Below are positions 578 through 55,258 of a stretch of 64,000 nt of DNA, one piece after another. The position numbers were made by a program, and so were the translations under genes. Source of the DNA: Pseudoxanthomonas sp. (GTDB taxonomy: Bacteria > Pseudomonadota > Gammaproteobacteria > Xanthomonadales > Xanthomonadaceae). The stretch lies in the NCBI RefSeq assembly GCF_035999195.1, contig NZ_DASYGY010000004.1, forward strand, positions 58,827 to 122,826, read 5' to 3'. Under the pieces are notes generated by a model. The model was not told the DNA's origin. It worked only from the letters and a program-made list of their open reading frames with translations, and ran no database searches. Numbering within the stretch: the first letter of the stretch is position 1; each line of letters starts with the position of its first letter.

Positions 578-2287
578 TCAGCGCTTCATCGAGCTGAAGA
601 ACTCGTCGTTGGACTTGGTGTTCTTCATCTTGTCCAGCAGGAACTCCATCGCCGCGATCTCGTCCATCGGATGCAGCAGCTTGCGCAGGATCCAGATCTT
701 CTGCAGCAGCTCCGGCTCGATCAGCAGGTCCTCGCGGCGCGTGCCCGAACGGTTGATGTCGATGGCCGGGTAGACGCGCTTCTCGGTGATGCGGCGGTTG
801 AGGTGCACTTCGCTGTTGCCGGTGCCCTTGAACTCTTCGTAGATCACCTCGTCCATCTTGCTGCCGGTCTCGACCAGCGCGGTGGCGATGATGGTCAGCG
901 AGCCGCCTTCCTCGACGTTGCGCGCGGCGCCGAAGAAGCGCTTCGGGCGGTGCAGGGCGTTGGCGTCCACGCCGCCGGTCAGCACCTTGCCGGAGCTGGG
1001 CACGACGTTGTTGTAGGCGCGGGCCAGGCGGGTGATCGAGTCCAGCATGATCACCACGTCCTTCTTGTGCTCGACCAGGCGCTTGGCGCGCTCGATCACC
1101 ATTTCGGCGACCTGCACGTGGCGCGCGGCGGGTTCGTCGAACGTCGAGCTGACCACTTCGCCGCGCACGGTGCGCTGCATTTCGGTCACTTCTTCCGGAC
1201 GCTCGTCCACCAGCAGCACGATCAGGTGCACGTCCGGGTGGTTGGTCGTGATGGCGGTGGCGATCTGCTGCATCATGATCGTCTTGCCCGCCTTGGGCGG
1301 CGACACGATCAGCGCGCGCTGGCCCTTGCCCTGCGGCGCCATCAGGTCGAGGATGCGGCCGGCGATGTCTTCCGACGACCCGTTGCCGCGCTCCAGGGTG
1401 AAACGACGGCGCGGGAACAGCGGCGTCAGGTTCTCGAACAGCACCTTGTTCTTCGACGCTTCCAGCGGCTCGCCGTTGATGGTGTCGATGGTCGACAGCG
1501 CGAAGTAGCGCTCGCCGTCCTTCGGCCAGCGGATGCGGCCGGCCAGGTGGTCGCCGGTGCGCAGGTTGAAGCGGCGGATCTGGCTGGGGCTGATGTAGAC
1601 ATCGTCCGGACCGGCCAGGTAGCTGGCCTCGGCCGCGCGCAGGAAGCCGAAGCCGTCCGGCAGGATTTCCAGCACGCCGTCGGCGGCGACGCCCTCACCG
1701 TGGCGGGTCAGCACCTTCAGCAGCGCGAAGATCACGTCCTGCTTGCGCGCGCGGGCCACGCCTTCCTGGATGTTCAGCTGCTCAGCGATGTCCAGCAGCC
1801 TGGGCGCGGGCATGCGCTTGAGGTCGCCCAGCGAATACTGGGGGAAGCCCTCCGGCACGTTCGGCATCGCGCGCGGCACGAACTGCTCCTGGCCGCCGCC
1901 GTTGCCGTCCTGCGGCATGCCGTCGTTGCCCTGGCGGTCGCGGTTGCGCTCGCGGCGGTTGCGGAAGCGGTCGCGGCGGTTGTTGTTGAAGCGGTTGCCG
2001 TCGCGCTGGTCGTTGCCGCGGTCGCCGCCGTCCTGTTGGCCGCCCTGTCCCTGCGGGGCCGGGGAGGATTCGCCACCGCCCTCGTGGGACGGCGCGGGGG
2101 GAGCGGAAGGCGCGGACTGGGCCGGGGCGCGTTCGGCCGAGACGGGCGGCAGCGGGAGCTGCGGCGCCATCTCGGGCGCACGCTCGGCCGGCGCTGCGGC
2201 GGTGTCGGCGGTGGGCGTCTTGGGGGCGCGGGGCTTGCGCACGCGCTTCTCGGCGGGAGCGCCGGTTTCGTTGCTGCTGTCGGACAA
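578..2287 (-). CDS. rho: Transcription termination factor Rho with long N-terminal extension
   Basis: [51 protein letters not shown] motifs; TTG start at 2287 preceded by GAGGA. Confidence 0.97.
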
Positions 2288-2496
2288 GTTGCGAATCCTC
2301 GCTAGGTGGCGAGCGCCGGCGTTGCGGCGGCGGGGTGAAGTGAAGAGTGGGTATTCAGATGGGTGCGGCGCATCCCCTGCGCCGGATTTCGGAGCCGACA
2401 CTATCACCGGCTCCGGGGTAGCGGCAAGCTGCCGGCCTGCCGCGGTTCAAGCGGATTCAGGCTGCGCGCCCGCCTCGGCGGCGCGCAGCGGGCGGA

Positions 2497-2838
2497 TCAG
2501 GCGGCCTGGGTCCCCAGGGCCTTGTCGATCATCTGGGTCAGCTGGCCCTTGCCGACGGCGCCGATCTGGGTGGCCTGGATCTGGCCGTCCTTGAACAGCA
2601 GCAGCATCGGGATGGAACGCACGTGGTACTTGATGGCGGTGGCGCGGTTCTCGTCCACGTTCACCTTGGCGACCTTCAGCTTGCCGCCGTAGGTCTCGGC
2701 CAGTTCGTCCAGGACCGGCGAAATCATCTTGCACGGGCCGCACCATTCGGCCCAGAAGTCCACCAGCACCGGCTCGCCGGACTGCAGTACGGCAGCGTCG
2801 AAATCGGCATCGCCGACGTGGGTCACTTTGTCGCTCAC
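2497..2838 (-). CDS. trxA: Thioredoxin
   Basis: WAEWCGPCK active site; GTG start after GGAG; conserved rhlB-trxA-rho synteny. Confidence 0.96.
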
Positions 2839-3064
2839 GGGGATCTCCTGCGGGGTCCGCGGACGGGCGCGGACGGGTTCGGGCCGGGACGGCCACCACG
2901 ATTGGGGTAAACTGGGGCGTTCCGCGACCTTTATCAAGGGTTTCCAGGTGGTCGCGCAACCCGGCACAGGGGGCGCAGTGTGCGACGCCGGTCAGGCCGT
3001 TGCAAGCACACCCACCGCATTCATACGAGACGCGCGCGGAACACAGCGACGCAAAGAAGAAGGC

Positions 3065-4759
3065 ATGAGCGACAAACCGTTAACCGATATCACGTTCTCC
3101 TCGTTCGACCTGCATCCGGCGCTGCTCGCCGGCCTGGAAGGCGCAGGTTTCTCCCGTTGCACGCCGATCCAGGCGATGACGCTGCCGGTGGCCCTGAAGG
3201 GCGGCGACGTCGCCGGCCAGGCGCAGACCGGCACCGGCAAGACGCTGGCCTTCCTGGTCGCGGTGATGAACCGCCTGTTGACCCGCCCGGCGCTGGCCGA
3301 CCGCAAGCCGGAGGATCCGCGCGCGCTGATCCTGGCGCCGACCCGCGAACTGGCCATCCAGATCCACAAGGACGCGGTGAAGTTCGGCGCCGACCTCGGC
3401 CTGCGCTTCGCGCTGGTGTACGGCGGCGTGGACTACGACAAGCAGCGTGAACTGCTGCAGCAGGGCGTGGACGTCATCATCGCCACGCCGGGCCGCCTGA
3501 TCGACTACGTCAAGCAGCACAAGGTGGTCAGCCTGCACGCCTGCGAGATGTGCGTGCTGGACGAAGCCGACCGCATGTTCGACCTCGGCTTCATCAAGGA
3601 CATCCGCTTCCTGCTGCGCCGCATGCCCGAGCGCACCACGCGGCAGACGCTGCTGTTCTCGGCCACGCTGTCGCACCGCGTGCTGGAACTGGCGTACGAA
3701 CACATGAACGAGCCGGAGAAGCTCGTCGTCGAGACCGAGTTCATCACCGCGGCCAAGGTGCGGCAGAAGCTGTACTACCCGGCCGACGAAGAGAAGATCC
3801 CGCTGCTGATCGGCCTGCTGTCGCGCAGCGAAGGCGCGCGCACGATGGTGTTCGTCAACACCAAGGCGTTCGTCGAGCGCGTGGCGCGCGCGCTGGAGCG
3901 GGCCGGCTACCGCGTGGGCGTGCTGTCCGGCGATGTGCCGCAGAAGAAGCGCGAGTCCTTGCTGAAGAAGTTCCAGGCCGGCCAGCTGGAACTGCTGGTG
4001 GCGACCGACGTGGCCGCGCGTGGCCTGCACATCGACGGCGTGTCGCACGTGTTCAACTTCGACCTGCCGTTCGATGCCGAGGACTACGTGCACCGCATCG
4101 GCCGTACCGCGCGCCTGGGCGCCGAGGGCGACGCGATCAGCTTCGCCTGCGAGCGCTATGCGATGTCGCTGCCGGACATCGAGGCCTACATCGAGCAGAA
4201 GATCCCGTCCGAGCCGGTCACTGCCGAACTGCTGACGGCGCTGCCGCGTCCTGAGCGTCCCAAGCCGGCCGCCGGCGAGGGCGACGGCGAAGAGGAGAGC
4301 GTCAGCCAGATCTTCCGCGAAGCGCGCGAGCAGAAGGCCGCCGACGAGGAGCGTCGTGGCGGTGGTCGCAAGCCGGGTGGCTCCGGCGGCGCGGGTCGCC
4401 GCGAGGGTGCTGGCCGCCGCGAGGGCGGTCGTCGCGAAGGCCCGCGTTCGGCCGACGGCAAGCCGCGTCCGCCGCGCGCGCCGCGTCCGGAAGGCGAAGC
4501 GGCCAGGCCGCAGGTAACGCGCCCGACGAACGAAGAAGTCCGTGCCGACGCGGTCGCGTTGCCGGAAGGCGAACGCAAGCCGCCGCGCAAGCGTCGTCGC
4601 CGTCGCCACGGCAAGCCGATCGAAGGCGCGGAGGCGGCGATCGCGAATGCGGCACCGGCCGCCGCCAAGCCGGCACCCGCGCCGACGCCGGCCGACGACA
4701 ATACGGGCTTCCTGACCCGACTGGGTCGCAAGATCCGCTCGCTGGTGTCGGGCGGCTGA
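3065..4759 (+). CDS. rhlB: DEAD-box RNA helicase RhlB
   Basis: [29 protein letters not shown] motifs; MSDKPLTD N-terminus; divergent from trxA. Confidence 0.95.
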
Positions 4760-13458: not shown

Positions 13459-14517
13459 CTAGCGTGTATGCAGGACGATGCGGTCCGCGTGCCGCTCGGC
13501 GCGCACCGGGAATCCCTGTTCCAGCAGGTGGGCGAAGCCCTCGGCGTTGGACCAGCGGAAGTTGCCGCCTACCCGCAGGTCGGCGACGGCGTCGTCGCCC
13601 AGCTCCAGCTTGCGGGTGTTGAAGCGGTTGAACTCGGCGGCAGCCGCGGCCAGCGAGGTATCGTCGAAGGTGAGGAAGCCGTCGCGCCATTCCAGGTACC
13701 GTTCCGCTTCCGCCACCGGCAGCGAACGCACCAGCACGCCGTTGCGGCCGGCCGTCGCCACGCTGCCGGCGGGCAGCAGCGACACCGGCTGTGCGCGACC
13801 ATCGGTAGCCGTGCGGCTCTCCAGCCGCACCTTGCCCTCGGTGACCACCACGCGGATCGCGTCCGGATCGCGGCGCACGGAGAAGCGCGTGCCGACCGCC
13901 TGCACGCGACGGCCTTCGGTTTCCACCACGAACGGGCGACGCGGGTCGTGGGCGACATCGAAGAAGGCTTCGCCCCGCGTCAGCGCCACATGCCGCTCGC
14001 CACGACTGATGCGCACCTCCAGATGGCTGTCGCTGCTCAACGTGGCCGTGGAGCCGTCGGGCAGGGTCACCGTCTGGATCTGGCCGACCGTGCTGGCATA
14101 CACCGCCTGCTCGCGGCCGGTCAGTTGCCAGCCGCCCCATGCCAGCGAGCCGAGCGCCAGCAGCGCGAGCGTCGCCGCCAGGCCCTGCGGCCAGCGACGG
14201 CGGCGGTGGCTGCCGCGCTCGCGCGGCGCGAAGGTGATGCCGCGAAGGTCCGGTCGTACGTCGGCAGGCAGGTCCTCTGTCCCGGCCATCGGCATGCGGC
14301 GCGCCGGCAGCGCGCCGGTCGGCACGCCCGCGCCGAGCGCCTGCAACCGGCCGGCTTCCGCCCACGCGGACTGCAGGCGCAGGAAGGCGACCTTGTGCCG
14401 CGCGGATTCGGCCAGCCAGGCATCGAGTGCCTGCTGCTCCTGCGCGGTCCAGTCGTCCGCATCGCGGCGGGCCAGCCAGTCGGCGGCCCGTGCTTCAATC
14501 TGTCTGCTGTCGGCCAT
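13459..14517 (-). CDS. FecR-family anti-sigma/sensor
   Basis: AADWLAR N-terminus, one TM, TLPDGSTATL..GEAFFDVAHD..RPFVV, VGTRF motifs. Confidence 0.92.
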   Translation of the reverse strand: MADSRQIEARAADWLARRDADDWTAQEQQALDAWLAESARHKVAFLRLQSAWAEAGRLQALGAGVPTGALPARRMPMAGTEDLPADVRPDLRGITFAPRERGSHRRRRWPQGLAATLALLALGSLAWGGWQLTGREQAVYASTVGQIQTVTLPDGSTATLSSDSHLEVRISRGERHVALTRGEAFFDVAHDPRRPFVVETEGRRVQAVGTRFSVRRDPDAIRVVVTEGKVRLESRTATDGRAQPVSLLPAGSVATAGRNGVLVRSLPVAEAERYLEWRDGFLTFDDTSLAAAAAEFNRFNTRKLELGDDAVADLRVGGNFRWSNAEGFAHLLEQGFPVRAERHADRIVLHTR

Positions 14518-15088
14518 GCGCCTCGTCCTCGTCCATGACGGGCCGGGCACCTCGCCCGTCCAGCGCAGGCACGGCGTCGCCGCCGTACAGGTGGTCGGCG
14601 ATCAGGCGCATCCCTTTGGCCAAATGCTTTTCCACGGTCTTCTCGCTGATGCCCAGTCGGCAGGCGACGTCCTTCTGCGGCAGTTCCTCCACGCGCCGCA
14701 GCCACACCACCTCGCGGCAACGGTCGGGGAGCCGGTCCAGGGCCTCGACCACGCGCTTGAGCGCCTGGCGGGTCCCGGTCCACCGCTCGGGCGACACCTC
14801 GTCGATCAGGTAGACGTTCGAGGACTCGAAATCACCCACTGGTTCGATCGACACCACCCGGCTGCGGCGCAGGCGGTCGGTCATCAGGTGGCGCGCGGTG
14901 GCGAACAGGAACGCCTTGGGCGTGTCCGGGCGCGTGCGCGACGCCGCTTCGTATACGCGTGCGTAGACCTCCTGGCGCAGGTCGTGCCACTCGTCCCGGT
15001 GCGGCCACGCGCGCTGCAGGAACAGCGCCAGCGCGCGTTCGTGGACGAGGACTTCGCGGACGAACCAGTCGTCGAGTTCGGTGGGCAT
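14495..15088 (-). CDS. ECF sigma-70 factor (FecI-like)
   Basis: DLRQEVYARV region 2; LDRLPDRCREVVWLRRVEELPQKDVACRLGISEKTVEKHL region 4. Confidence 0.92.
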   Translation of the reverse strand: MPTELDDWFVREVLVHERALALFLQRAWPHRDEWHDLRQEVYARVYEAASRTRPDTPKAFLFATARHLMTDRLRRSRVVSIEPVGDFESSNVYLIDEVSPERWTGTRQALKRVVEALDRLPDRCREVVWLRRVEELPQKDVACRLGISEKTVEKHLAKGMRLIADHLYGGDAVPALDGRGARPVMDEDEAHGRQQTD

Positions 15089-15207
15089 GGCCGCACTCTA
15101 TCCCAAGCGACGCGCCGATCCGCATGGGGGAAGCGGGCCGCCCCTTCGTCTCCACCATGCATCGGTGCGTGGCATCCTGCCGCGACCCTCGACCCTGGGA
15201 GTACGGC

Positions 15208-17148
15208 ATGGTGTCTGTCTTCGGCCTGTTGCGGCGCGGCGCGGTCTGCGTGGTGGCGCTCGCGTTGTCATTGCCGGCGTTCGCCGCCAGACCCGCGCAC
15301 TACGTACTCGGCGACACGGCGGCGAAGACGCCCGGACCGGTGCAGCCCGGCCTGCTGCTGATGGGCGGGGGCGACCGCAACTTCGACGCGTTGCGCTGGT
15401 TCATGAAGAAGGCGGGCAACGGCCACATCGTGGTGCTGCGCGCGTCGCAGGCCGGCGAGATCGGCGAGGAATTCTTCAACGAGGTCGGCGGCATCGTGTC
15501 GGTCGAGACCTGGGTGTTCAGCGACCGCGAAAGTGCAAGCGATCCTGCGGTGCTGCGCAGCCTGAAGCGCGCCGACGGCATCTTCCTGGCCGGCGGCGAC
15601 CAGTCGCGCTACGTGCGCTACTGGCGCGGCACGCCGGTCGGCGCGGCGCTCGATGCGCATGTCGCGGCGGGCAAGCCGCTCGGCGGCACCAGCGCCGGCC
15701 TGGCGATGCAGGGCGAATACCTGTACGGCGCGATGGACGGCGGCAGCCAGATCAGCCCGCGCGCGCTGGCCGACCCGCTCGGTCCGGACAACACCATCGA
15801 AACGGATTTCCTCAGGCTGCCGCTGCTCAAGGGCGTGATCACCGATACGCACTTCAGCGAACGCAACCGGCTGGGTCGCCTGATCGCCTTCGTCGCCAAG
15901 GCGGAGTCGATGGCACGTCGTCCGCTGATCGGCCTGGGGGTGGATGAAGACGCCGCCGTCGCCGTGGAAGCCGATGGCCGCGCGCGTGTCTACGCGACCG
16001 CGCCTGGCGCCGGTGCGACGGTGGTGAAGGGCGGCTTCGTGCAGGCGCAGGTGGAAGACGAGCCGATGCACCTCGAGCGCGTGGATACCGTGATCGCCGG
16101 CGCCGAATCAGTGCTGCACCTGCCCAGCGGCCGGGTCGAGAAGCCCGCGGCCGAGCGCCGTTATGCGGTGCGAGACGGGGTGCTGGTGGCGCTGGATTCG
16201 CCGCTGCTGGTGATCCATGGCGGTGCGGGCGTCGAACGCGCCGACATGACGCCGGCCGAAGAAGACGCGGCGCGCAAGGCGCTGGAAGCCGCGCTGCGTG
16301 CCGGCCATGCGCAGCTCGCCGCCGGCAAGCCGGCGCTGGATGCCGTGACCGCCGCGATCACCGTGCTGGAAGACGCGCCGTCGTTCAACGCCGGTCGCGG
16401 TGCGGTATTCACCCACGACGGCAGGAACGAACTCGACGCTTCGATCATGGACGGCACGACCGGCAAGGCCGGCGCCGTGGCCGGCGTGCACCGGGTCAGG
16501 AACCCGATCACGCTGGCGCGCGCAGTGATGGAGAAGTCGCGCCACGTGATGATGGTCGGCGGCGGCGCGGAGGCGTTCGCGAAGGAACAGGGCGTTGCGC
16601 TCGTGGACCCGTCGTACTTCCGCACCGAGAAGCGCTGGCAGCAGCTGCAGAAGGCGCTGCAGGAAGAGAAGCGGGCGCAGGCGAACAACACGCCGCTGGA
16701 CCTGCCGGGCAAGGCGTACTTCGGCACGGTCGGCGCGCTGGCGCTCGATACGAAGGGGGCGCTGGCCGCGGGCACCTCGACCGGAGGCATGACCAACAAG
16801 CGCTACGGCCGCGTCGGCGACGCACCCATCATCGGCGCGGGCACCTGGGCCGACGACCGCTGCGCGGTGTCCGGCACCGGCTGGGGCGAGTACTACATCC
16901 GCGCCGCCGCCGCGCACGAGATCTGCGCGCGCGTGCGCCTGTCGGGGCAGGGCATCGCGCGCGCCGCCGACAGCGTGATCAACCGCGACATCCCCAGGGT
17001 CGGCGGCGACGGCGGTGCCATCGCCCTCGGCGCCGACGGCAGCATGGCGTTCCCGTTCAATACCGAAGGCATGTACCGCGGCTGGATCGGCGCCGACGGC
17101 GTGCCGCACGTGGCGATCTACAAGGACGATCCGCTGCCTGTGAGGTGA
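15208..17148 (+). CDS. Exported fusion: cyanophycinase-like S51 peptidase + isoaspartyl peptidase/L-asparaginase (Ntn hydrolase)
   Basis: Signal peptide; GGGD, GGDQ, GTSAG, DTHFSERNRLGRL, GVDED (S51 triad motifs); then IHGGAG, FNAGRG, GTVGA (Thr nucleophile), TSTGG, RVGDAP, SGTGWGE. Confidence 0.88.
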   Translation: MVSVFGLLRRGAVCVVALALSLPAFAARPAHYVLGDTAAKTPGPVQPGLLLMGGGDRNFDALRWFMKKAGNGHIVVLRASQAGEIGEEFFNEVGGIVSVETWVFSDRESASDPAVLRSLKRADGIFLAGGDQSRYVRYWRGTPVGAALDAHVAAGKPLGGTSAGLAMQGEYLYGAMDGGSQISPRALADPLGPDNTIETDFLRLPLLKGVITDTHFSERNRLGRLIAFVAKAESMARRPLIGLGVDEDAAVAVEADGRARVYATAPGAGATVVKGGFVQAQVEDEPMHLERVDTVIAGAESVLHLPSGRVEKPAAERRYAVRDGVLVALDSPLLVIHGGAGVERADMTPAEEDAARKALEAALRAGHAQLAAGKPALDAVTAAITVLEDAPSFNAGRGAVFTHDGRNELDASIMDGTTGKAGAVAGVHRVRNPITLARAVMEKSRHVMMVGGGAEAFAKEQGVALVDPSYFRTEKRWQQLQKALQEEKRAQANNTPLDLPGKAYFGTVGALALDTKGALAAGTSTGGMTNKRYGRVGDAPIIGAGTWADDRCAVSGTGWGEYYIRAAAAHEICARVRLSGQGIARAADSVINRDIPRVGGDGGAIALGADGSMAFPFNTEGMYRGWIGADGVPHVAIYKDDPLPVR

Positions 17149-51428: not shown

Positions 51429-51441
51429 TGCTTCTTGCTGA

Positions 51442-51508
51442 TGTGGGAGCGACGTAAGTCGCGATGAGGCTTTACCGGTACCCGTTCGCGACTTACGTCG
51501 CTCCCACA
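51442..51508. repeat. REP doublet (family A)
   Basis: tgtgggagcgacgtaagtcgcga ... tcgcgacttacgtcgctcccaca; spacer similar to the 8111 copy. Confidence 0.9.
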
Positions 51509-51525
51509 CAAGCAATGGCAGCTTT

Positions 51526-51557
51526 AAAAAAAAGGGGCGAGCCGAAGCTCACCCCTT
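51526..51557 (-). terminator. Intrinsic terminator of rtcB, overlapping its stop codon
   Basis: aaggggtgagc-ttcg-gctcgcccctt then a T tract on the minus strand. Confidence 0.8.
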
Positions 51558-52772
51558 GATGCACACCACCTGGCGCAGCGTGTGGACGATCTCCACCAGG
51601 TCGGACTGCGCGGCCATGACCGCGTCGATGTCCTTGTAGGCGGCCGGCGACTCGTCGATCACGCCGGCATCCTTGCGGCATTCGACGTGCGCCGTGGCCT
51701 CGCGGTGCTGCGACAGCGTGATCTGCTGGCGCGCGGCGGTACGGCTCATCACGCGGCCTGCCCCGTGGCTGCAGCTGTGGAAGCTGTCCGCGTTGCCCTT
51801 GCCGCGCACGATGAAGCTCTTCGCGCCCATGCTGCCGGGGATGATCCCCAGTTCGCCTGCGCGCGCGCTCACCGCGCCCTTGCGCGTCACCAGCAGGTCC
51901 ACGCCGCCGTGCGTTTCCTTCTGCACGTAGTTGTGGTGGCAGTTCACCGCCATCTTCTCCAGCTGGAACTTCGGCAGGCGGTGGCGCATCTCCGCCAGTA
52001 CGCGCGACATCATCGCTTCGCGGTTCTCGCGGGCGTAGTCCTGAGCCCACGACACCGCTTCCACGTAGTCGTCGAACAGGGGCTCGCCTTCCATGAAGAA
52101 GGCCAGGTCCTTGTCCGGCAGGTGGAAGCCCAGCACACGGTGCGCCAGTTGCTCGCGCGCCCGCTCGATGAAGTAGTTGCCGATCAGGTTGCCGGTGCCG
52201 CGCGACCCGCTGTGCAGCATCACCCACACGGCATCGCTTTCGTCGAGGCAGAGCTCGATGAAGTGGTTGCCGCCGCCCAGTGTGCCGATCTGGCGATCCA
52301 GCTTGTCGGTACGGATCCTGCGGTGCTTCTCCTTGATCACGTCGAGTCGCTCGGCCAGCCCCGACTGCGCGATGCGCGTGCCGATGCTGTCCGGCAGCTT
52401 CCAGTGCTCGCCGCCACGGCCGTTGCCGACCGGCACGCTGCGCTCGATGCCCGAGCGCAGTTGCGCCAGGCTGTCGGGCAGGTCCTTCGCGCGCAGCGTG
52501 GTGCGCACCGCGGCCATGCCGCAGCCGATGTCCACGCCGACCGCCGCCGGGATGATCGCGCCGCGGGTCGGGATGACCGAACCCACCGTCGCACCCTTGC
52601 CCAGGTGCACGTCGGGCATCACCGCGACCCACGGCCCGACGAACGGGATGGAGGCGATGTTTTGCAGCTGCTCGTGGGCCTGCTGTTCCAGCGGCACGCC
52701 GCGCACCCAGCCCTTGATCGGCGTGGTGCTGCCCTCGGCGTGCAGCAGTTCGAATCGGGATTGCATGTTCAT
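51549..52772 (-). CDS. rtcB: RNA 2',3'-cyclic/3'-phosphate-5'-OH ligase RtcB
   Basis: MPDVHLGKG, AVGVDIGCG, GTLGGGNHFIE, MLHSGSRG, HHNY, GSMG, CSHGAGR, DESPAAYK. Confidence 0.96.
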   Translation of the reverse strand: MNMQSRFELLHAEGSTTPIKGWVRGVPLEQQAHEQLQNIASIPFVGPWVAVMPDVHLGKGATVGSVIPTRGAIIPAAVGVDIGCGMAAVRTTLRAKDLPDSLAQLRSGIERSVPVGNGRGGEHWKLPDSIGTRIAQSGLAERLDVIKEKHRRIRTDKLDRQIGTLGGGNHFIELCLDESDAVWVMLHSGSRGTGNLIGNYFIERAREQLAHRVLGFHLPDKDLAFFMEGEPLFDDYVEAVSWAQDYARENREAMMSRVLAEMRHRLPKFQLEKMAVNCHHNYVQKETHGGVDLLVTRKGAVSARAGELGIIPGSMGAKSFIVRGKGNADSFHSCSHGAGRVMSRTAARQQITLSQHREATAHVECRKDAGVIDESPAAYKDIDAVMAAQSDLVEIVHTLRQVVCIKG

Positions 52773-52800
52773 GTGTTCACTCCATTGAAAGGATGAAGCC

Positions 52801-52962
52801 CCTTCCCCCGCAAGCGGGGAAGGTCGGGATGGGGGCGAACGGCACCGCAGCGCCGTATCGCGCCAGAGGTTGGGCCGCGTTCCCGCGCTCTCCATGCGCT
52901 GACGCGTGCCATGCTCCGGCGTGCCCCCACCCCAGCCCTCCCCCGTGAACGGGGGAGGGGGC
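52801..52962. repeat. Inverted pair of family C REP-like hairpin elements between slipin and rtcB
   Basis: ccttcccccgcaagcggggaaggtcgggatgggggc (52801-52836) vs gcccccaccccagccctcccccgtgaacgggggagggggc (52923-52962). Confidence 0.6.
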
Positions 52963-52971
52963 AGGTTCCTG

Positions 52972-54090
52972 CTACTTCAACGTCACCAGCTGCTTCAGCA
53001 CGCCATCCAGGCCGCCGAACACGGTGAGCTTGTCGATCTTCTCGGTGACCTTCTCCAGGGCCTCGAGCTCCTTCAGGCGCATCAGCACCGGCGACTCGTC
53101 GATCAGCTTCGCGGTGTTGAGCAGGGAACGCGTGGCGTTCGCCTCCTCGCGGCGGCGGATCACGTTGGCTTGCGCCGTCTTCTCCGCCTGCACCACCCCG
53201 TTGAGGATCTCCTTCATCTCGCCCGGCAGGATCACGTCCTTCACGCCCACGCCCAGCACCTCGACGCCGAAGCCGGTCAACTGGCCGCGCACGTAGGCGA
53301 AGATGTCGGCGTCCAGCGAGGCCTTGTCGCCCAGCAGTTCGTCCAGCGTCCTGGCCGCGACCGCCTTGCGCAGGCCGTACTGCAGCTCGCGGTAGACGAA
53401 GTCGCCGACCTTCGCGACCTTGGTGCGCGCGGCCACCACGTCGGTGACGCGTGTGCTGGCGGCCAGGTTCACGCGCAGGCTGACCTTGTCGCGGGTCAGC
53501 AGCTCCTGGCCCGACACTTCGATCGTCTGCACGCGCAGGTCGACGATGTCCACGACCACGTTCTTCTGGAAATTCCAGAAGGCGTAGGAACCCGCGGACA
53601 ACGTGCGCTCGAGCTTGCCGTCGATGAACACCAGGCCGGCGAACTCCGCCGGCACATCGGCCACCACGGCCAGCTTCGACAACGTGCCCAACTGGCGCAG
53701 GCGACGCGCGACGGCACCCTCGACGTCCAGCGAGGCCAGCGTCACCGCCTGCACCTCGACCTTCACCAGGCCGATCCAGTACAGGCGCCGCGTGCCGGGC
53801 GGCAGCACGTCTTCCAGCTTGCCGTTCTTCAGCACCAGGCCGACCTTGTCCACGCCGATGTCGGCATGCACGAAGACCTCGCCCAGGCGTTCGCCCAGGC
53901 CCGCGATCAGCGCGTCGACGTCATGGCCGGAATACTCCGGCGATGCGATGTTGAAGGTGCGCACCTCGGTCCGACCCATCGGGTCGAACCAGCGGTACAC
54001 GCCGGGTGCGAGCACGCGCTCGAACCGAAGGTTGCGATACACCAGGCCGCGCTCGCCGTCACCGATCACGACCCTCTTGGTCCAGAACAT
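52972..54090 (-). CDS. SPFH/band-7 domain protein (slipin family), no TM segment
   Basis: ERGLV repeats; VDLRVQTIEVSGQELLTRDKVSLRVNL, VKDVILPGEMK, AQANVIRRREE, LKELEALE; AAGGAG RBS. Confidence 0.88.
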   Translation of the reverse strand: MFWTKRVVIGDGERGLVYRNLRFERVLAPGVYRWFDPMGRTEVRTFNIASPEYSGHDVDALIAGLGERLGEVFVHADIGVDKVGLVLKNGKLEDVLPPGTRRLYWIGLVKVEVQAVTLASLDVEGAVARRLRQLGTLSKLAVVADVPAEFAGLVFIDGKLERTLSAGSYAFWNFQKNVVVDIVDLRVQTIEVSGQELLTRDKVSLRVNLAASTRVTDVVAARTKVAKVGDFVYRELQYGLRKAVAARTLDELLGDKASLDADIFAYVRGQLTGFGVEVLGVGVKDVILPGEMKEILNGVVQAEKTAQANVIRRREEANATRSLLNTAKLIDESPVLMRLKELEALEKVTEKIDKLTVFGGLDGVLKQLVTLK

Positions 54091-54457
54091 GGCGTTGTTC
54101 TCCTTGTTGGCTCTGGTGGTTCGATCCGGATCCAACGGATCGCCGCGGTGGATCGAGTCCCGCGACGAACGGTGCCCATCGCGATGCGCGATCGGCGGAA
54201 GAAGGTGGAAACGCCCCTGGACGAGGGCGGTGCGGGCGACCGGCGCTGTCGGCGGACGCATCGCAGCGAGGGCGCAGTCCATGGACTGCGTCGAACGCTG
54301 CGCGCGTCCGCGTCGAGGGCGCGGTGCCGGCACCATCCCCGCTGCGATGCATCGTCTTCCTGCATTCCTTCGCGGAAAGGCGTTGCGCCGCACGGGGCGT
54401 TTCCTGGGGGGACTTTCGTCCCGGTGTCATGACGTGACAGGTCATGTGCCCTTGCAG

Positions 54458-54531
54458 GCGTTGGAGCGGGAATCGAACCCGCGACAGTCGGATTAACCGT
54501 CCGATGCTCTAACCATCTGAGCTATCCAGTG
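54458..54531 (-). tRNA. Aberrant tRNA-like element, Asn-type GTT anticodon (G33, broken acceptor stem, no encoded CCA)
   Basis: TA-GCTC-AGATGGTTA-GAGC-A-TCGGA-CGGTTAA-TCCGA-CTGTC-GCGGG-TTCGATT-CCCGC; acceptor pairs 5 of 7. Confidence 0.7.
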
Positions 54532-54601
54532 GTGGACGAACCGGATTCGAACCGGTGGCCAACGGCATGCGCCGCTGCTCTCCCACGCTGAGCTATCGTC
54601 C
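54530..54601 (-). tRNA. Aberrant tRNA-like element with 4-nt anticodon loop (GCAT), 6-bp acceptor stem and encoded CCA
   Basis: GGACGA-TA-GCTC-AGCGTGGGA-GAGC-A-GCGGC-GCAT-GCCGT-TGGCC-ACCGG-TTCGAAT-CCGGT-TCGTCC-ACCA. Confidence 0.7.
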
Positions 54602-54944
54602 GCTCGAGGAACACCGTCTCCCACGCTTCGGCATACGCCACGGCAGCGCCGCGCGCACCGGACGGGATACAAACCCGTGCCGCTGTCGCGTGTTCGATCG
54701 ATGCTCCGCATTGCCGGCGGTCGCCCACCGGCAATCCGTTCGGGCGCCATGCGCCCTTGTCGGCGTTCTCTCCACGTGCAGCCCGCATCGGGGCATCACG
54801 ACGCAGCGCACATGCGCCAGTCGCAGCCGCGCCCCTGCATCGGGGCGCGCACGCGCGCTACCCGGATGCCCCAGGGCGGAAAAGGATTTCCGTGGTGGAA
54901 AGAGACGAACCTGTTCGATGCATGCGCATCCTCCGCGAACGCTG

Positions 54945-55018
54945 AAAACAAAACGCCCCCGGGACTTGCGACCCGAGGGCGTTCGCGTTCCTCGGGAGAT
55001 CGGGGTGGCCGATCTCCC
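54945..55018 (-). terminator. Attenuator: protector hairpin / antiterminator / intrinsic terminator
   Basis: GGGAGATCGG-ccacc-CCGATCTCCC (55018-54994); CCCGAGG..CCTCGGG (54996-54972); AACGCCCTCGGG-tcgcaagt-CCCGGGGGCGTT-ttgtttt (54983-54945). Confidence 0.75.
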
Positions 55019-55035
55019 AGGGAGTCAGCCGGATG

Positions 55036-55158
55036 TCAGAAGTCCAGGTGCCGTGCGCGTTCGGTACCGCGCAGGTCGCTGCCGTTCGCACGCAGCGCCA
55101 GGCCGCAGCGTGATGGCTGCAGGGCGGGCTTGCTGTCGAAGGAATAGGCGGGCTTCAT
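55036..55158 (-). CDS. Putative 40-aa leader peptide MKPAYSFDSKPALQPSRCGLALRANGSDLRGTERARHLDF
   Basis: ATG about 43 nt after the predicted TSS; stop 17 nt before the attenuator; no Shine-Dalgarno. Confidence 0.5.
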   Translation of the reverse strand: MKPAYSFDSKPALQPSRCGLALRANGSDLRGTERARHLDF

Positions 55159-55200
55159 GGGAAGAATTCGATTGCTGAAAAAACGGCCATGTGGCCGACG

Positions 55201-55258
55201 GGCGCGGACGATACGCCGCTTGTTTGCGGAGCGCAACACTTTTTTGATCTTATTTTCG
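55201..55258 (-). promoter_or_regulatory. Sigma70 promoter with UP element and GC-rich discriminator
   Basis: TTGCGC (55236-55231)-N17-TATCGT (55213-55208); upstream aaaataagatcaaaaaa; downstream ccgcgcc. Confidence 0.65.

Follow-up and report, generated by a model that had tools for sequence, protein, structure and literature searches.

How is an RNA-repair operon controlled when no gene for the regulator RtcR stands beside it, and what is the purpose of RNAs that it encodes in the likeness of tRNA? Both questions are raised by a locus of Pseudoxanthomonas sp. in a 64,000-nucleotide (nt) stretch of contig NZ_DASYGY010000004.1 – referred to here as the window – in which a long structured leader RNA with two tRNA-like cloverleaves precedes a gene for a slipin, a protein of the SPFH/Band-7 family, and the RNA ligase gene rtcB. 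All parts of the operon lie on the minus strand, reading from 55236 to 51532 in window coordinates, and its best relatives are found in Pseudoxanthomonas genomes; it was compared with 80 Lysobacteraceae loci taken with 8-kb flanks, which together with the window give 81 sequences. By its sequence, the locus can be placed securely in a class of RNA-repair operons that combine an SPFH/Band-7 gene, a tRNA associated with band 7 (b7a-tRNA) and RtcB. The explanation that best covers it as a whole – a member of this class in which an attenuator with a leader open reading frame (ORF) stands instead of RtcR, and whose mimics persist as a stable RNA – is one that we consider probable, if by some way short of assured. 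The sequence-only reading of the window had listed a promoter, a leader ORF, an attenuator, structured RNA, two defective cloverleaves, an SPFH gene without a transmembrane segment, rtcB and a terminator, and each of these elements is indeed present.

Searches by tblastn with E. coli queries (E <= 1e-3) gave no match to RtcR or RtcA, either within the 64-kb window or across the 80 loci and their flanks, and a sigma-54 -24/-12 motif (TGGCAC-N5-TTGC, up to two mismatches) was not found between 52427 and 55578. The earlier description of an operon without rtcR, rtcA or Ro60 stands for the first two genes in the window and the 80 loci, and for Ro60 among the scanned ORFs of the window: no TROVE domain was reported among 16 newly scanned long ORFs of high GC3, four of the other five long ORFs having already been identified (rtcB, slipin, MTS and FtsX) and the remaining one, of 627 amino acids (aa) at 13478-15361, having been left out. 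Loci of the same kind in other lineages are differently equipped. Full-length slipin orthologues with 35-48% identity were recovered by tblastn from plasmid and secondary-chromosome records, the Burkholderia and Photobacterium proteins being 40-48% identical over the full length and the match in the Firmicute Subdoligranulum likewise full-length; E. coli RtcR as a query finds rtcR in Burkholderia, Photobacterium and Citrobacter. In Burkholderia, a divergent rtcR and a sigma-54 promoter (CTGGCACGCTCCTCGC) are followed by a conserved 5' motif, a degenerate first cloverleaf (T1), the second cloverleaf (T2), slipin, rtcB and a nucleotidyltransferase gene; Photobacterium has rtcR, a sigma-54 promoter, the 5' motif, the full T1-T2 tandem, slipin and rtcB; and Citrobacter has rtcR, a sigma-54 promoter, slipin and the nucleotidyltransferase gene. 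The promoter of the first two reads TGGCAC-N5-T(T/C)GC, with rtcR divergent in both.

The attenuator block is absent from all the RtcR-type loci examined, and across the lineages compared rtcR with its sigma-54 promoter and the attenuator are mutually exclusive. This distribution – rtcR loci without the block, Lysobacteraceae loci with the block and without rtcR – strongly supports, on comparative grounds, the earlier proposal of attenuation rather than RtcR, and the replacement of RtcR by a leader-ORF attenuator in Lysobacteraceae appears well supported at the level of sequence. As far as the searchable literature goes – in which the 2016 paper on the class is represented by a paper citing it – an attenuator in this role is undescribed.

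The putative switch lies at the beginning of the transcript and consists of the following elements.

55036-55158, minus strand: leader ORF of 40 codons (MKPAYSFDSKPALQPSRCGLALRANGSDLRGTERARHLDF), with the stop codon TGA at 55038-55036
54943-55030, minus strand: attenuator block with U-tract, found by nhmmer in 79 of the 80 loci
55030-55020, minus strand: attenuator region 1
55018-55007, minus strand: attenuator region 2
55003-54990, minus strand: attenuator region 3
54983-54972, minus strand: attenuator region 4
54963-54952, minus strand: attenuator region 5
54984-54951, minus strand: terminator-like hairpin of the leader, its U-tract running to 54943
54935-54942, minus strand: GCGUUCGC, just past the U-tract, pairing with GCGAACGC (54986-54979)

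The five regions allow four helices – 1:2, 2:3 (hairpin 1), 3:4 (the antiterminator, CCCGAGG/CCUCGGG) and 4:5 (the terminator) – with predicted energies of -19 kcal/mol for hairpin 1 and -22.8 kcal/mol for the terminator, and leader ORF and attenuator together fold with z = -3.8. In 79 of 79 loci they are preceded by an ATG ORF that is 25-70 codons long (mode 40) and stops 12-22 nt short of hairpin 1, against 12.3 loci expected by chance from dinucleotide shuffles. In many loci its stop codon lies inside region 1 (CGAC-UGA-UCUCC); in the window it comes 5 nt before that region. The alignment of related genomes contains a single indel in the ORF, which is in frame and 3 nt long. The encoded peptide, which shows a weak motif M-K-x-x-F-H-I-A ... 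R-D-A-G, is poorly conserved; most of its differences are non-synonymous, and variability is no higher at third positions than elsewhere. Such divergence without a third-position bias suggests that translation itself, rather than the peptide product, is what matters.

Each of the four helices finds some support in covariation, including the two that exclude hairpin 1. Of the sequences, 38 have AU and 19 have GC in columns 16/46, which, because column 46 falls in the loop of hairpin 1, support helix 1:2 alone. Columns 58/84 are CG in 48 sequences and UA in four; as the change from C to U in column 58 weakens a G-C pair of hairpin 1 to G-U, this exchange supports helix 3:4. Helices 2:3 and 4:5 are supported by columns 41/55 and 84/96, respectively. 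The block as a whole is near-invariant, although the slipins of the same genomes are only 75% identical. An additional pairing, between GCGUUCGC and GCGAACGC – the latter within the 5' arm of the terminator – has 96.9% of its cells paired and two compensatory pairs, and is possible in read-through transcripts only.

Upstream of the leader ORF stand the two elements from which transcription would start, the promoter being the weakest item of the whole anatomy.

55208-55236, minus strand: putative sigma-70-type promoter, TTGCGC (55236-55231), N17, TATCGT (55213-55208)
55178-55197, minus strand: 5' stem-loop GGCC-ACAT-GGCC followed by U6, conserved, with changes on both sides of the stem (judged by eye)

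Eleven of the 12 hexamer positions are invariant in 16 related genomes and the remaining one is nearly so, but the promoter matches the consensus at 8 of 12 positions only, which is why a consensus scan flagged no promoter at the operon start. The stem-loop with its U6 resembles a terminator, yet it sits at the 5' end of the leader, about 4 nt past the presumed start site, where it possibly acts as a 5' stabiliser or as a U-rich landing site for ribosomes.

Past the leader terminator, the 860 nt up to the slipin ATG fold with z = -11.2 relative to dinucleotide shuffles. Conservation of this upstream RNA, which the sequence-only reading had named as a check on its proposal, is borne out block by block in the 80 genomes, and by compensatory pairs within the tRNA mimics. 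The RNA comprises the following parts.

54603-54934, minus strand: structured 5' domain before the mimics, with its D2 block in 80 of 80 loci
54735-54710 and 54678-54662, minus strand: hairpins of the 5' domain, with changes on both sides of the stems (by eye in the alignment)
54661-54630, minus strand: 32-nt motif CCGGUGCGCGCGGCGCUGCCGUGGCGUAUGCC, near-invariant in all 80 loci
54532-54602, minus strand: tRNA-like cloverleaf T1 (ARAGORN; Rfam tRNA 45.3 bits)
54458-54531, minus strand: tRNA-like cloverleaf T2, the counterpart of b7a-tRNA (ARAGORN; Rfam tRNA 49.4 bits)
54428-54446, minus strand: hairpin H3, CAUGAC-CUGUCAC-GUCAUG, a copy of a tRNA-Asp-type anticodon stem-loop
54409-54422, minus strand: GNRA hairpin GGGAC-GAAA-GUCCC, conserved, with complementary variants GGAAC/GUUCC and GGGC/GCCC
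54091-54408, minus strand: remaining 5' untranslated region, containing a conserved ribosome-binding region (AAGGAG, 54105-54100) and, at 54311-54252, a long imperfect hairpin

T1 and T2 stand head to tail with zero spacer. T1 has an acceptor stem of 6-7 base pairs (bp), D and T arms, and an 'anticodon' arm that ends in a loop of 4 nt (GCAU in the window); this loop has 4 nt in 52 of the 81 sequences and is mostly of the GNRA type (GCAA in 13, GAAA in 9) or GCAU (8). T2 combines invariant D and T arms with a 7-nt anticodon loop, CGGUUAA ('Asn GUU'), that carries G33, and with an acceptor stem of only 4 bp (UGGA/UCCA), so that its CCA is buried in the stem rather than free. Neither combines the 7-bp acceptor stem, the 7-nt loop with U33 and the free 3' CCA of a genuine tRNA. 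With a covariance model derived from 38 tandems, the window and the 80 loci yield exactly one full-length tandem apiece (102-166 bits), always upstream of the slipin gene and on its strand (81 of 81 sources), and a model, R1, matches the mimics of the Burkholderia and Photobacterium operons with 63-112 bits (hits of 112, 77 and 63, the full Photobacterium tandem having 112). In the tandem alignment, which is fitted to its own covariance model, 98.4% of cells are paired and 22 of 37 pairs are compensatory; 0 of 500 shuffles were as good, and slid structures came nowhere near the true one. An independent MAFFT/RNAalifold run returned the same two cloverleaves with 14 compensatory pairs.

The elbows of the cloverleaves – their D and T loops – are their most conserved parts, and the anticodon loop of T2 lies at the other extreme. 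It has 7 nt in 72 of the 81 sequences; among these 72, the pyrimidine at position 32 and A37 are kept, U33 occurs in only 48, and 27 different 'anticodons' are found, with GUU the commonest. When about 1,200 leader windows are ranked from the most variable down over 13-14 close relatives, with slipins at least 92% identical to that of the Pseudoxanthomonas locus, the one containing the T2 anticodon comes third, the remainder of T2 being almost invariant. Its variability exceeds the 95th percentile of four-fold sites, yet equals that of the most variable spacer windows of the leader; as far as sequence can tell, this is an absence of constraint, and no positive selection is claimed. The variable positions are 33-36 and 38 (loop at 54494-54500). 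The loop UUCAGAU ('CAG') recurs in six distant loci, CAG being also the anticodon of the P. carbinolicus RNA discussed below.

Right after T2, a hairpin with a 7-nt loop is present in about 70 of the 81 sequences, with UGU in 53. Its loops include CUGUCAC (Asp-like, 28), CUUUCAC (Glu-like, 11) and CUGUAAA (Tyr-like, 11), its 'anticodons' are GUC in 32, GUA in 13, UUC in 11, GUU in 7 and GUG in 3, and its stem occurs in several complementary versions. These versions of H3 form discrete 'alleles', among them an Asp/Glu type (CAUGAC-CUNUCAC-GUCAUG) and a Tyr type (CCAGA-CUGUAAA-UCUGG), whose distribution over the phylogeny is patchy, even where strains have slipins at least 92% identical to that of the window; such patchiness suggests exchange of the alleles through recombination.

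In Burkholderia, Photobacterium and Subdoligranulum, too, the mimics come after the 5' motif, there in a shorter version, GGUGCGC..GCRYAURCC. Apart from tRNA, no Rfam family reaches its threshold in the leader, and there is no riboswitch or T-box match; the YrlA model reaches 29 bits, its gathering score being 69, with a match merely across the T1/T2 junction. A candidate long-range helix between GGUGUU before T1 and AACACC after T2 was rejected, as its mean of 4.77 bp compares with 4.57 bp in between-locus shuffles.

Many metatranscriptomes contain the leader, and in three of them assembled contigs bridge the terminator.

54789-55074, strandless: bridging contig of metatranscriptome X26
54727-55061, strandless: bridging contig of metatranscriptome X28
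54517-55039, strandless: bridging contig of metatranscriptome X31

Depth is concentrated on the mimics: in X28, 54226-54686 is covered at a depth of 70.7 against 7-10 in the flanks; in X33, 54465-54646 reaches 77.8x against 4.6; and in X32, contigs of 54457-54542 and 54513-54646 stand at 57-68x with an exact match to the window, nothing else of the strain being assembled. The tRNA-mimic segment thus has 7-17 times the depth of the flanks or the mRNA in three independent metatranscriptomes, an observation that is supportive, though not proof, of its accumulation as a stable RNA. Contig joints that skip T1 (e.g. 54528 to 54629) were considered and rejected as splicing: they also appear in DNA-like runs and sit where T1 diverges among strains, the invariant motif making assembly graphs branch. 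Nor are the contig ends at 54629 and 54646 to be taken as RNA ends.

The protein-coding part of the operon consists of two genes and a terminator.

52972-54090, minus strand: slipin/SPFH gene, 372 aa (Band_7 104 bits; closest solved structure PH stomatin, E 1e-22)
51549-52772, minus strand: rtcB, 407 aa (Pfam RtcB 418 bits), with GGAG 7 nt before the ATG
51532-51557, minus strand: intrinsic terminator of the operon, after rtcB

The slipin, whose relatives are named 'slipin family protein' by NCBI, differs from typical stomatins in having no transmembrane segment (maximum Kyte-Doolittle(19) value 1.52). Its N-terminus contains three tandem repeats of about 68 aa derived from the first SPFH beta segment (53680-54090; DNA spacing 204-207 nt), and its C-terminal part, after the stomatin-like core, is predicted by a low-confidence model to form long helices. 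As solved stomatins are many-chain entries in the PDB, it is a reasonable guess, by analogy, that the slipin forms an oligomeric assembly in the cytoplasm. RtcB, at 57.6% identity to the E. coli enzyme, is a standard bacterial RtcB, and its gene lies downstream of the slipin gene in 76 of the 80 loci. No relative of the slipin was found in viral contigs, and the PADLOC defence-system models match neither the slipin nor RtcB.

Taken together, these elements would operate as follows. Transcription would start at the weak but conserved sigma-70-type promoter, and ribosomes would read the leader ORF of about 40 codons. A ribosome that reaches the stop codon would cover region 1, leaving hairpin 1 (2:3) and the terminator (4:5) to form, so that transcription would end after about 260 nt. 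Were the ribosome absent, late or stalled – through damaged tRNAs or inhibited translation – region 1 would pair with region 2 and the 3:4 antiterminator would form, and the polymerase would read on through the 860-nt structured RNA, the slipin gene and rtcB. From this transcript, the mimic-bearing segment would remain as a stable RNA and become the partner of a cytoplasmic slipin oligomer and RtcB. That the leader ORF is translated, that the switch works in this direction and that RNA and proteins form a complex is what we infer; induction by translation stress, which the sequence-only reading had also proposed, follows in the model from the geometry of the helices, and gains plausibility from the fit with rtcB induction in Acinetobacter baumannii, the Anabaena repressor TrcR and the armZ leader peptide, discussed below.

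Within such a complex, the mimic RNA would probably serve as a scaffold or tRNA-shaped handle for slipin and RtcB; the wider suggestion made earlier, of a decoy, scaffold or substrate for an SPFH-RtcB complex, stays at the level of conjecture. The conserved elbow and T arm, and the fact that Burkholderia has lost the anticodon loop, point to the tRNA shape as what is recognised, and the anticodon-loop mimics specific to Lysobacteraceae hint, again by comparison of sequences, at an additional, lineage-specific role.

Several observations weigh against such an account. No Shine-Dalgarno sequence precedes the leader ORF of the window, and a similar motif occurs in only three of the 79 loci. Helix 1:2, as it exists in the clade of the window, has a 3-nt loop and, at about -16 kcal/mol for the upstream segment, is weaker than hairpin 1. 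The attenuator is near-invariant, loops included, beyond what base pairing requires, which may indicate a trans-acting factor and is also the reason why covariation is limited to few columns. The metatranscriptome contigs carry neither strand nor true ends and may include DNA, some runs behave like metagenomic DNA, and no isolate RNA-seq containing the locus was found. On the side of the mimics, T2 of Burkholderia has a GAAA tetraloop instead of an anticodon loop, so that a role requiring this loop cannot be general. As for the proteins, an AlphaFold2 model of the slipin, built from a 14-sequence alignment, is unusable (predicted local distance difference test score, pLDDT, 45), and four loci (L066, L070, L073 and L078) have the complete leader RNA and slipin with no rtcB within 8 kb downstream, which means that the RNA-slipin pair can exist without an adjacent ligase gene.

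The near-invariance in particular invites the alternative that not the ribosome but a trans-acting factor – RtcB, the slipin or a damaged tRNA fragment – acts on hairpin 1 and the antiterminator, in the manner of a T-box or of protein-dependent antitermination. Loops and stems that hardly change while slipins fall to 75% identity would then be expected, as would a leader ORF without a Shine-Dalgarno sequence, and a direct sensor of damage would be the functional equivalent of tRNA-fragment sensing by the CARF domain of RtcR (PMC7790460). Such a factor, however, leaves unexplained why an ATG ORF keeps its length and stop position in 79 of 79 loci and why its stop codon overlaps or abuts region 1, and the sequence offers neither an identifiable ligand or partner nor an Rfam riboswitch or T-box match; it is unlikely. 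Ranking behind it, and somewhat more doubtful, is the idea that the small ORF, its hairpins and the terminator constitute an independent small gene, for a protein or a small RNA, with the downstream RNA, slipin and rtcB expressed from a promoter of their own. A strong terminator (-22.8 kcal/mol) followed by a U-tract, a weak peptide motif that could belong to a functional micro-protein, and a depth that is higher over the mimics than over the ORF region all suit it. Between 54943 and 54603, however, no site resembling a promoter was found, RNA contigs cross the terminator in three metatranscriptomes, and the peptide diverges mostly non-synonymously; the stop codon, moreover, keeps its distance of 12-22 nt upstream of hairpin 1 in 79 of 79 loci, the exclusive helices 1:2 and 3:4 covary although a plain terminator has no need of them, and the block is present only where rtcR and sigma-54 are missing.

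Other alternatives concern the mimics. They might be processing signals only, with cuts by RNase P and RNase Z setting the 5' end and the stability of the slipin-rtcB mRNA and the released pieces having no function: tRNA-like punctuation is a known processing route for polycistronic RNAs, the D- and T-loop elbows are the most conserved parts, and variability in the T2 anticodon loop is about on a par with that of the least constrained leader windows. Against this, T2, with its 4-bp acceptor stem and buried CCA, should be cut poorly by RNase P/Z, the loop of H3 is confined to specific anticodon-loop sequences, and in three metatranscriptomes the mimic segment exceeds the mRNA 7-17-fold in abundance; tandem, 5' motif and slipin also stay together from Lysobacteraceae to Vibrionaceae, and 5' motif and slipin gene in a Firmicute too, a co-occurrence that argues for a dedicated partnership. 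A purely processing role is therefore judged improbable. That T1 and T2 are decaying tRNA genes or remnants of integration sites has in its favour that both exceed the Rfam tRNA gathering threshold, but 81 of 81 sequences retain the same defects and show compensatory changes, the spacing is zero and the position upstream of the slipin gene is fixed whatever the neighbours. The kept defects and compensatory changes refute this origin unless the elements are untranscribed, and its probability is practically negligible. A bolder reading starts from the fact that the T2 anticodon loop and H3 carry GUN-type loops, as do tRNA-Asp, Tyr, His and Asn, which are the targets of tRNA-guanine transglycosylase and are cut by colicin-E5-type nucleases. 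The leader might then be a cis-acting sensor of RNA damage and itself a substrate of RtcB: cuts that invading anticodon nucleases make in the T2 and H3 loops would alter the fate of the slipin-rtcB mRNA, and RtcB would either reseal the leader or splice out the stretch of about 65 nt that separates the two loops, in a self-limiting circuit analogous to the unconventional splicing of HAC1/XBP1 by eukaryotic RtcB. We regard this as highly improbable, though far from absurd, and return to the attenuator with a stable mimic RNA as the preferred account.

Around the operon, the flanks are of a housekeeping kind: an FtsX-type permease, an RsmC-like methyltransferase and a pseudouridine synthase. An inverted repeat at 51435-51515, with 30-nt arms that are 93% complementary and a 21-nt gap, is flanked by the end of the FtsX-type gene on one side and the rtcB terminator on the other. 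The window also contains genes for Rho (609 aa, with a long N-terminal extension) and an RhlB-type DEAD-box helicase at 578-4759; with about 47 kb between them and the operon, any link is probably a coincidence.

The slipin-rtcB spacer (52773-52971, 199 nt) is variable, ranging across loci from about 40 to about 210 nt between the boundaries of the slipin and rtcB matches; in the window it contains two GC-rich hairpins, and a 35-nt hairpin stands in its place in other strains (contig joints 52790 to 52970). In 11 of the 80 loci, an extra ORF of about 250-300 aa, with copies 47-94% identical, stands between the two genes – L006 (9126-9935), L007, L009, L011, L053, L056, L058, L067, L072, L074 and L076 – and has no Pfam, NCBIfam or PADLOC match. 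The nucleotidyltransferase gene already mentioned follows rtcB in Burkholderia and Subdoligranulum and takes the place of rtcB in Citrobacter and in E. coli STEC639 (L082:8514-9284, L087:8509-9198, L084:8759-9508, L083:7128-7913 and L085:7128-7919); a gene with this domain is present in none of the Lysobacteraceae loci.

If the attenuator model is true, an RNA-repair operon joins the genes controlled by the self-monitoring of ribosomes, and it would be the loss of translation capacity itself that signals a need for RNA repair, along a path that has nothing to do with RtcR. Few bacterial RNA ligases are as widespread as RtcB, and the questions that surround it are what its natural substrates are and what its partner proteins and RNAs are for. 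To these questions the locus brings a defined RNA of several hundred nt – with two tRNA mimics, an anticodon-loop mimic and a 5' domain found across phyla, yet belonging to no Rfam family – as well as a simple, cis-encoded switch of predicted polarity, and a soluble SPFH protein that may reveal a role of SPFH assemblies away from membranes.

How, then, does the locus relate to systems already known? In Pelobacter carbinolicus, a 'mutant tRNA-Asn' (Pcar_R0061) was described in 2012 at a locus where it precedes a stomatin-like gene, rtcA1 and rtcB, and where rtcR is divergent; it has the anticodon CAG, A33 and a CCA buried through a 7-nt deletion, and its authors proposed a role as substrate or guide for RNA enzymes (PMC3543383). 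According to the passage quoted in bioRxiv 10.1101/312249, Burroughs and Aravind generalised such RNAs in 2016 as b7a-tRNA, for which the same passage states that there is no experimental validation. In P. aeruginosa, the SPFH gene PaFlo8 likewise lies within an rtc locus (PMC13086221). The association of tRNA mimics, SPFH and RtcB noted in the sequence-only reading is thus real, but it is not a discovery: having been described in 2012 (PMC3543383) and, as quoted in the citing preprint, named in 2016, it makes the core of the finding a rediscovery. The Pseudoxanthomonas locus shares with the class the order of tRNA-like RNA, SPFH gene and rtcB on one strand, and with Pcar_R0061 the buried CCA, the non-U33 and the non-cognate anticodon of T2. 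Unlike the class, the Lysobacteraceae loci are without rtcR, the sigma-54 promoter, rtcA and the nucleotidyltransferase, and have instead the leader ORF with its attenuator; the structured RNA behind these is much larger, with an extra 5' domain of about 330 nt and with H3.

The rsr-yrlBA-rtcBA operon of Salmonella (PMC7790460, PMC4201824) encodes Ro60 and the tRNA-like Y RNA YrlA under the control of RtcR, whose signal is a tRNA fragment bound by its CARF domain (PMC7790460). Both operons are RtcB operons that encode a tRNA-mimicking RNA of their own and a putative scaffold protein; in the window, however, no TROVE/Ro60 appears among the scanned ORFs, and the Salmonella operon is regulated by RtcR through tRNA fragments. 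Induction of rtcB by impaired translation has been reported elsewhere: tigecycline induces the gene 252-fold in A. baumannii (PMC7652931), and in Anabaena TrcR derepresses rtcB under translation stress, with a slipin-family gene in the same regulon (PMC10272220). The present operon would resemble these in turning on rtcB when translation is impaired, without RtcR, and differs from them in that their control is exerted by protein repressors or unknown mechanisms, with no cis attenuator and no tRNA mimic reported.

For the switch itself, the closest parallel is the leader peptide PA5471.1 of P. aeruginosa, proposed to sense stalled ribosomes and to control the RtcB-like armZ (PMC12057347). Both have a short ORF upstream, mutually exclusive helices and an intrinsic terminator, and in both a disturbance of leader translation leads to read-through, as a prediction in the case of the present operon; between the two leaders themselves there is no sequence similarity. 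Classical attenuators of the trp type are likewise leader-peptide attenuators that sense stalled or missing ribosomes. The Lysobacteraceae leader departs from these with five regions instead of four, it lacks both a Shine-Dalgarno sequence and runs of regulatory codons, and its predicted behaviour in the complete absence of translation – read-through into the structured RNA, slipin and rtcB – is the opposite of trp superattenuation.

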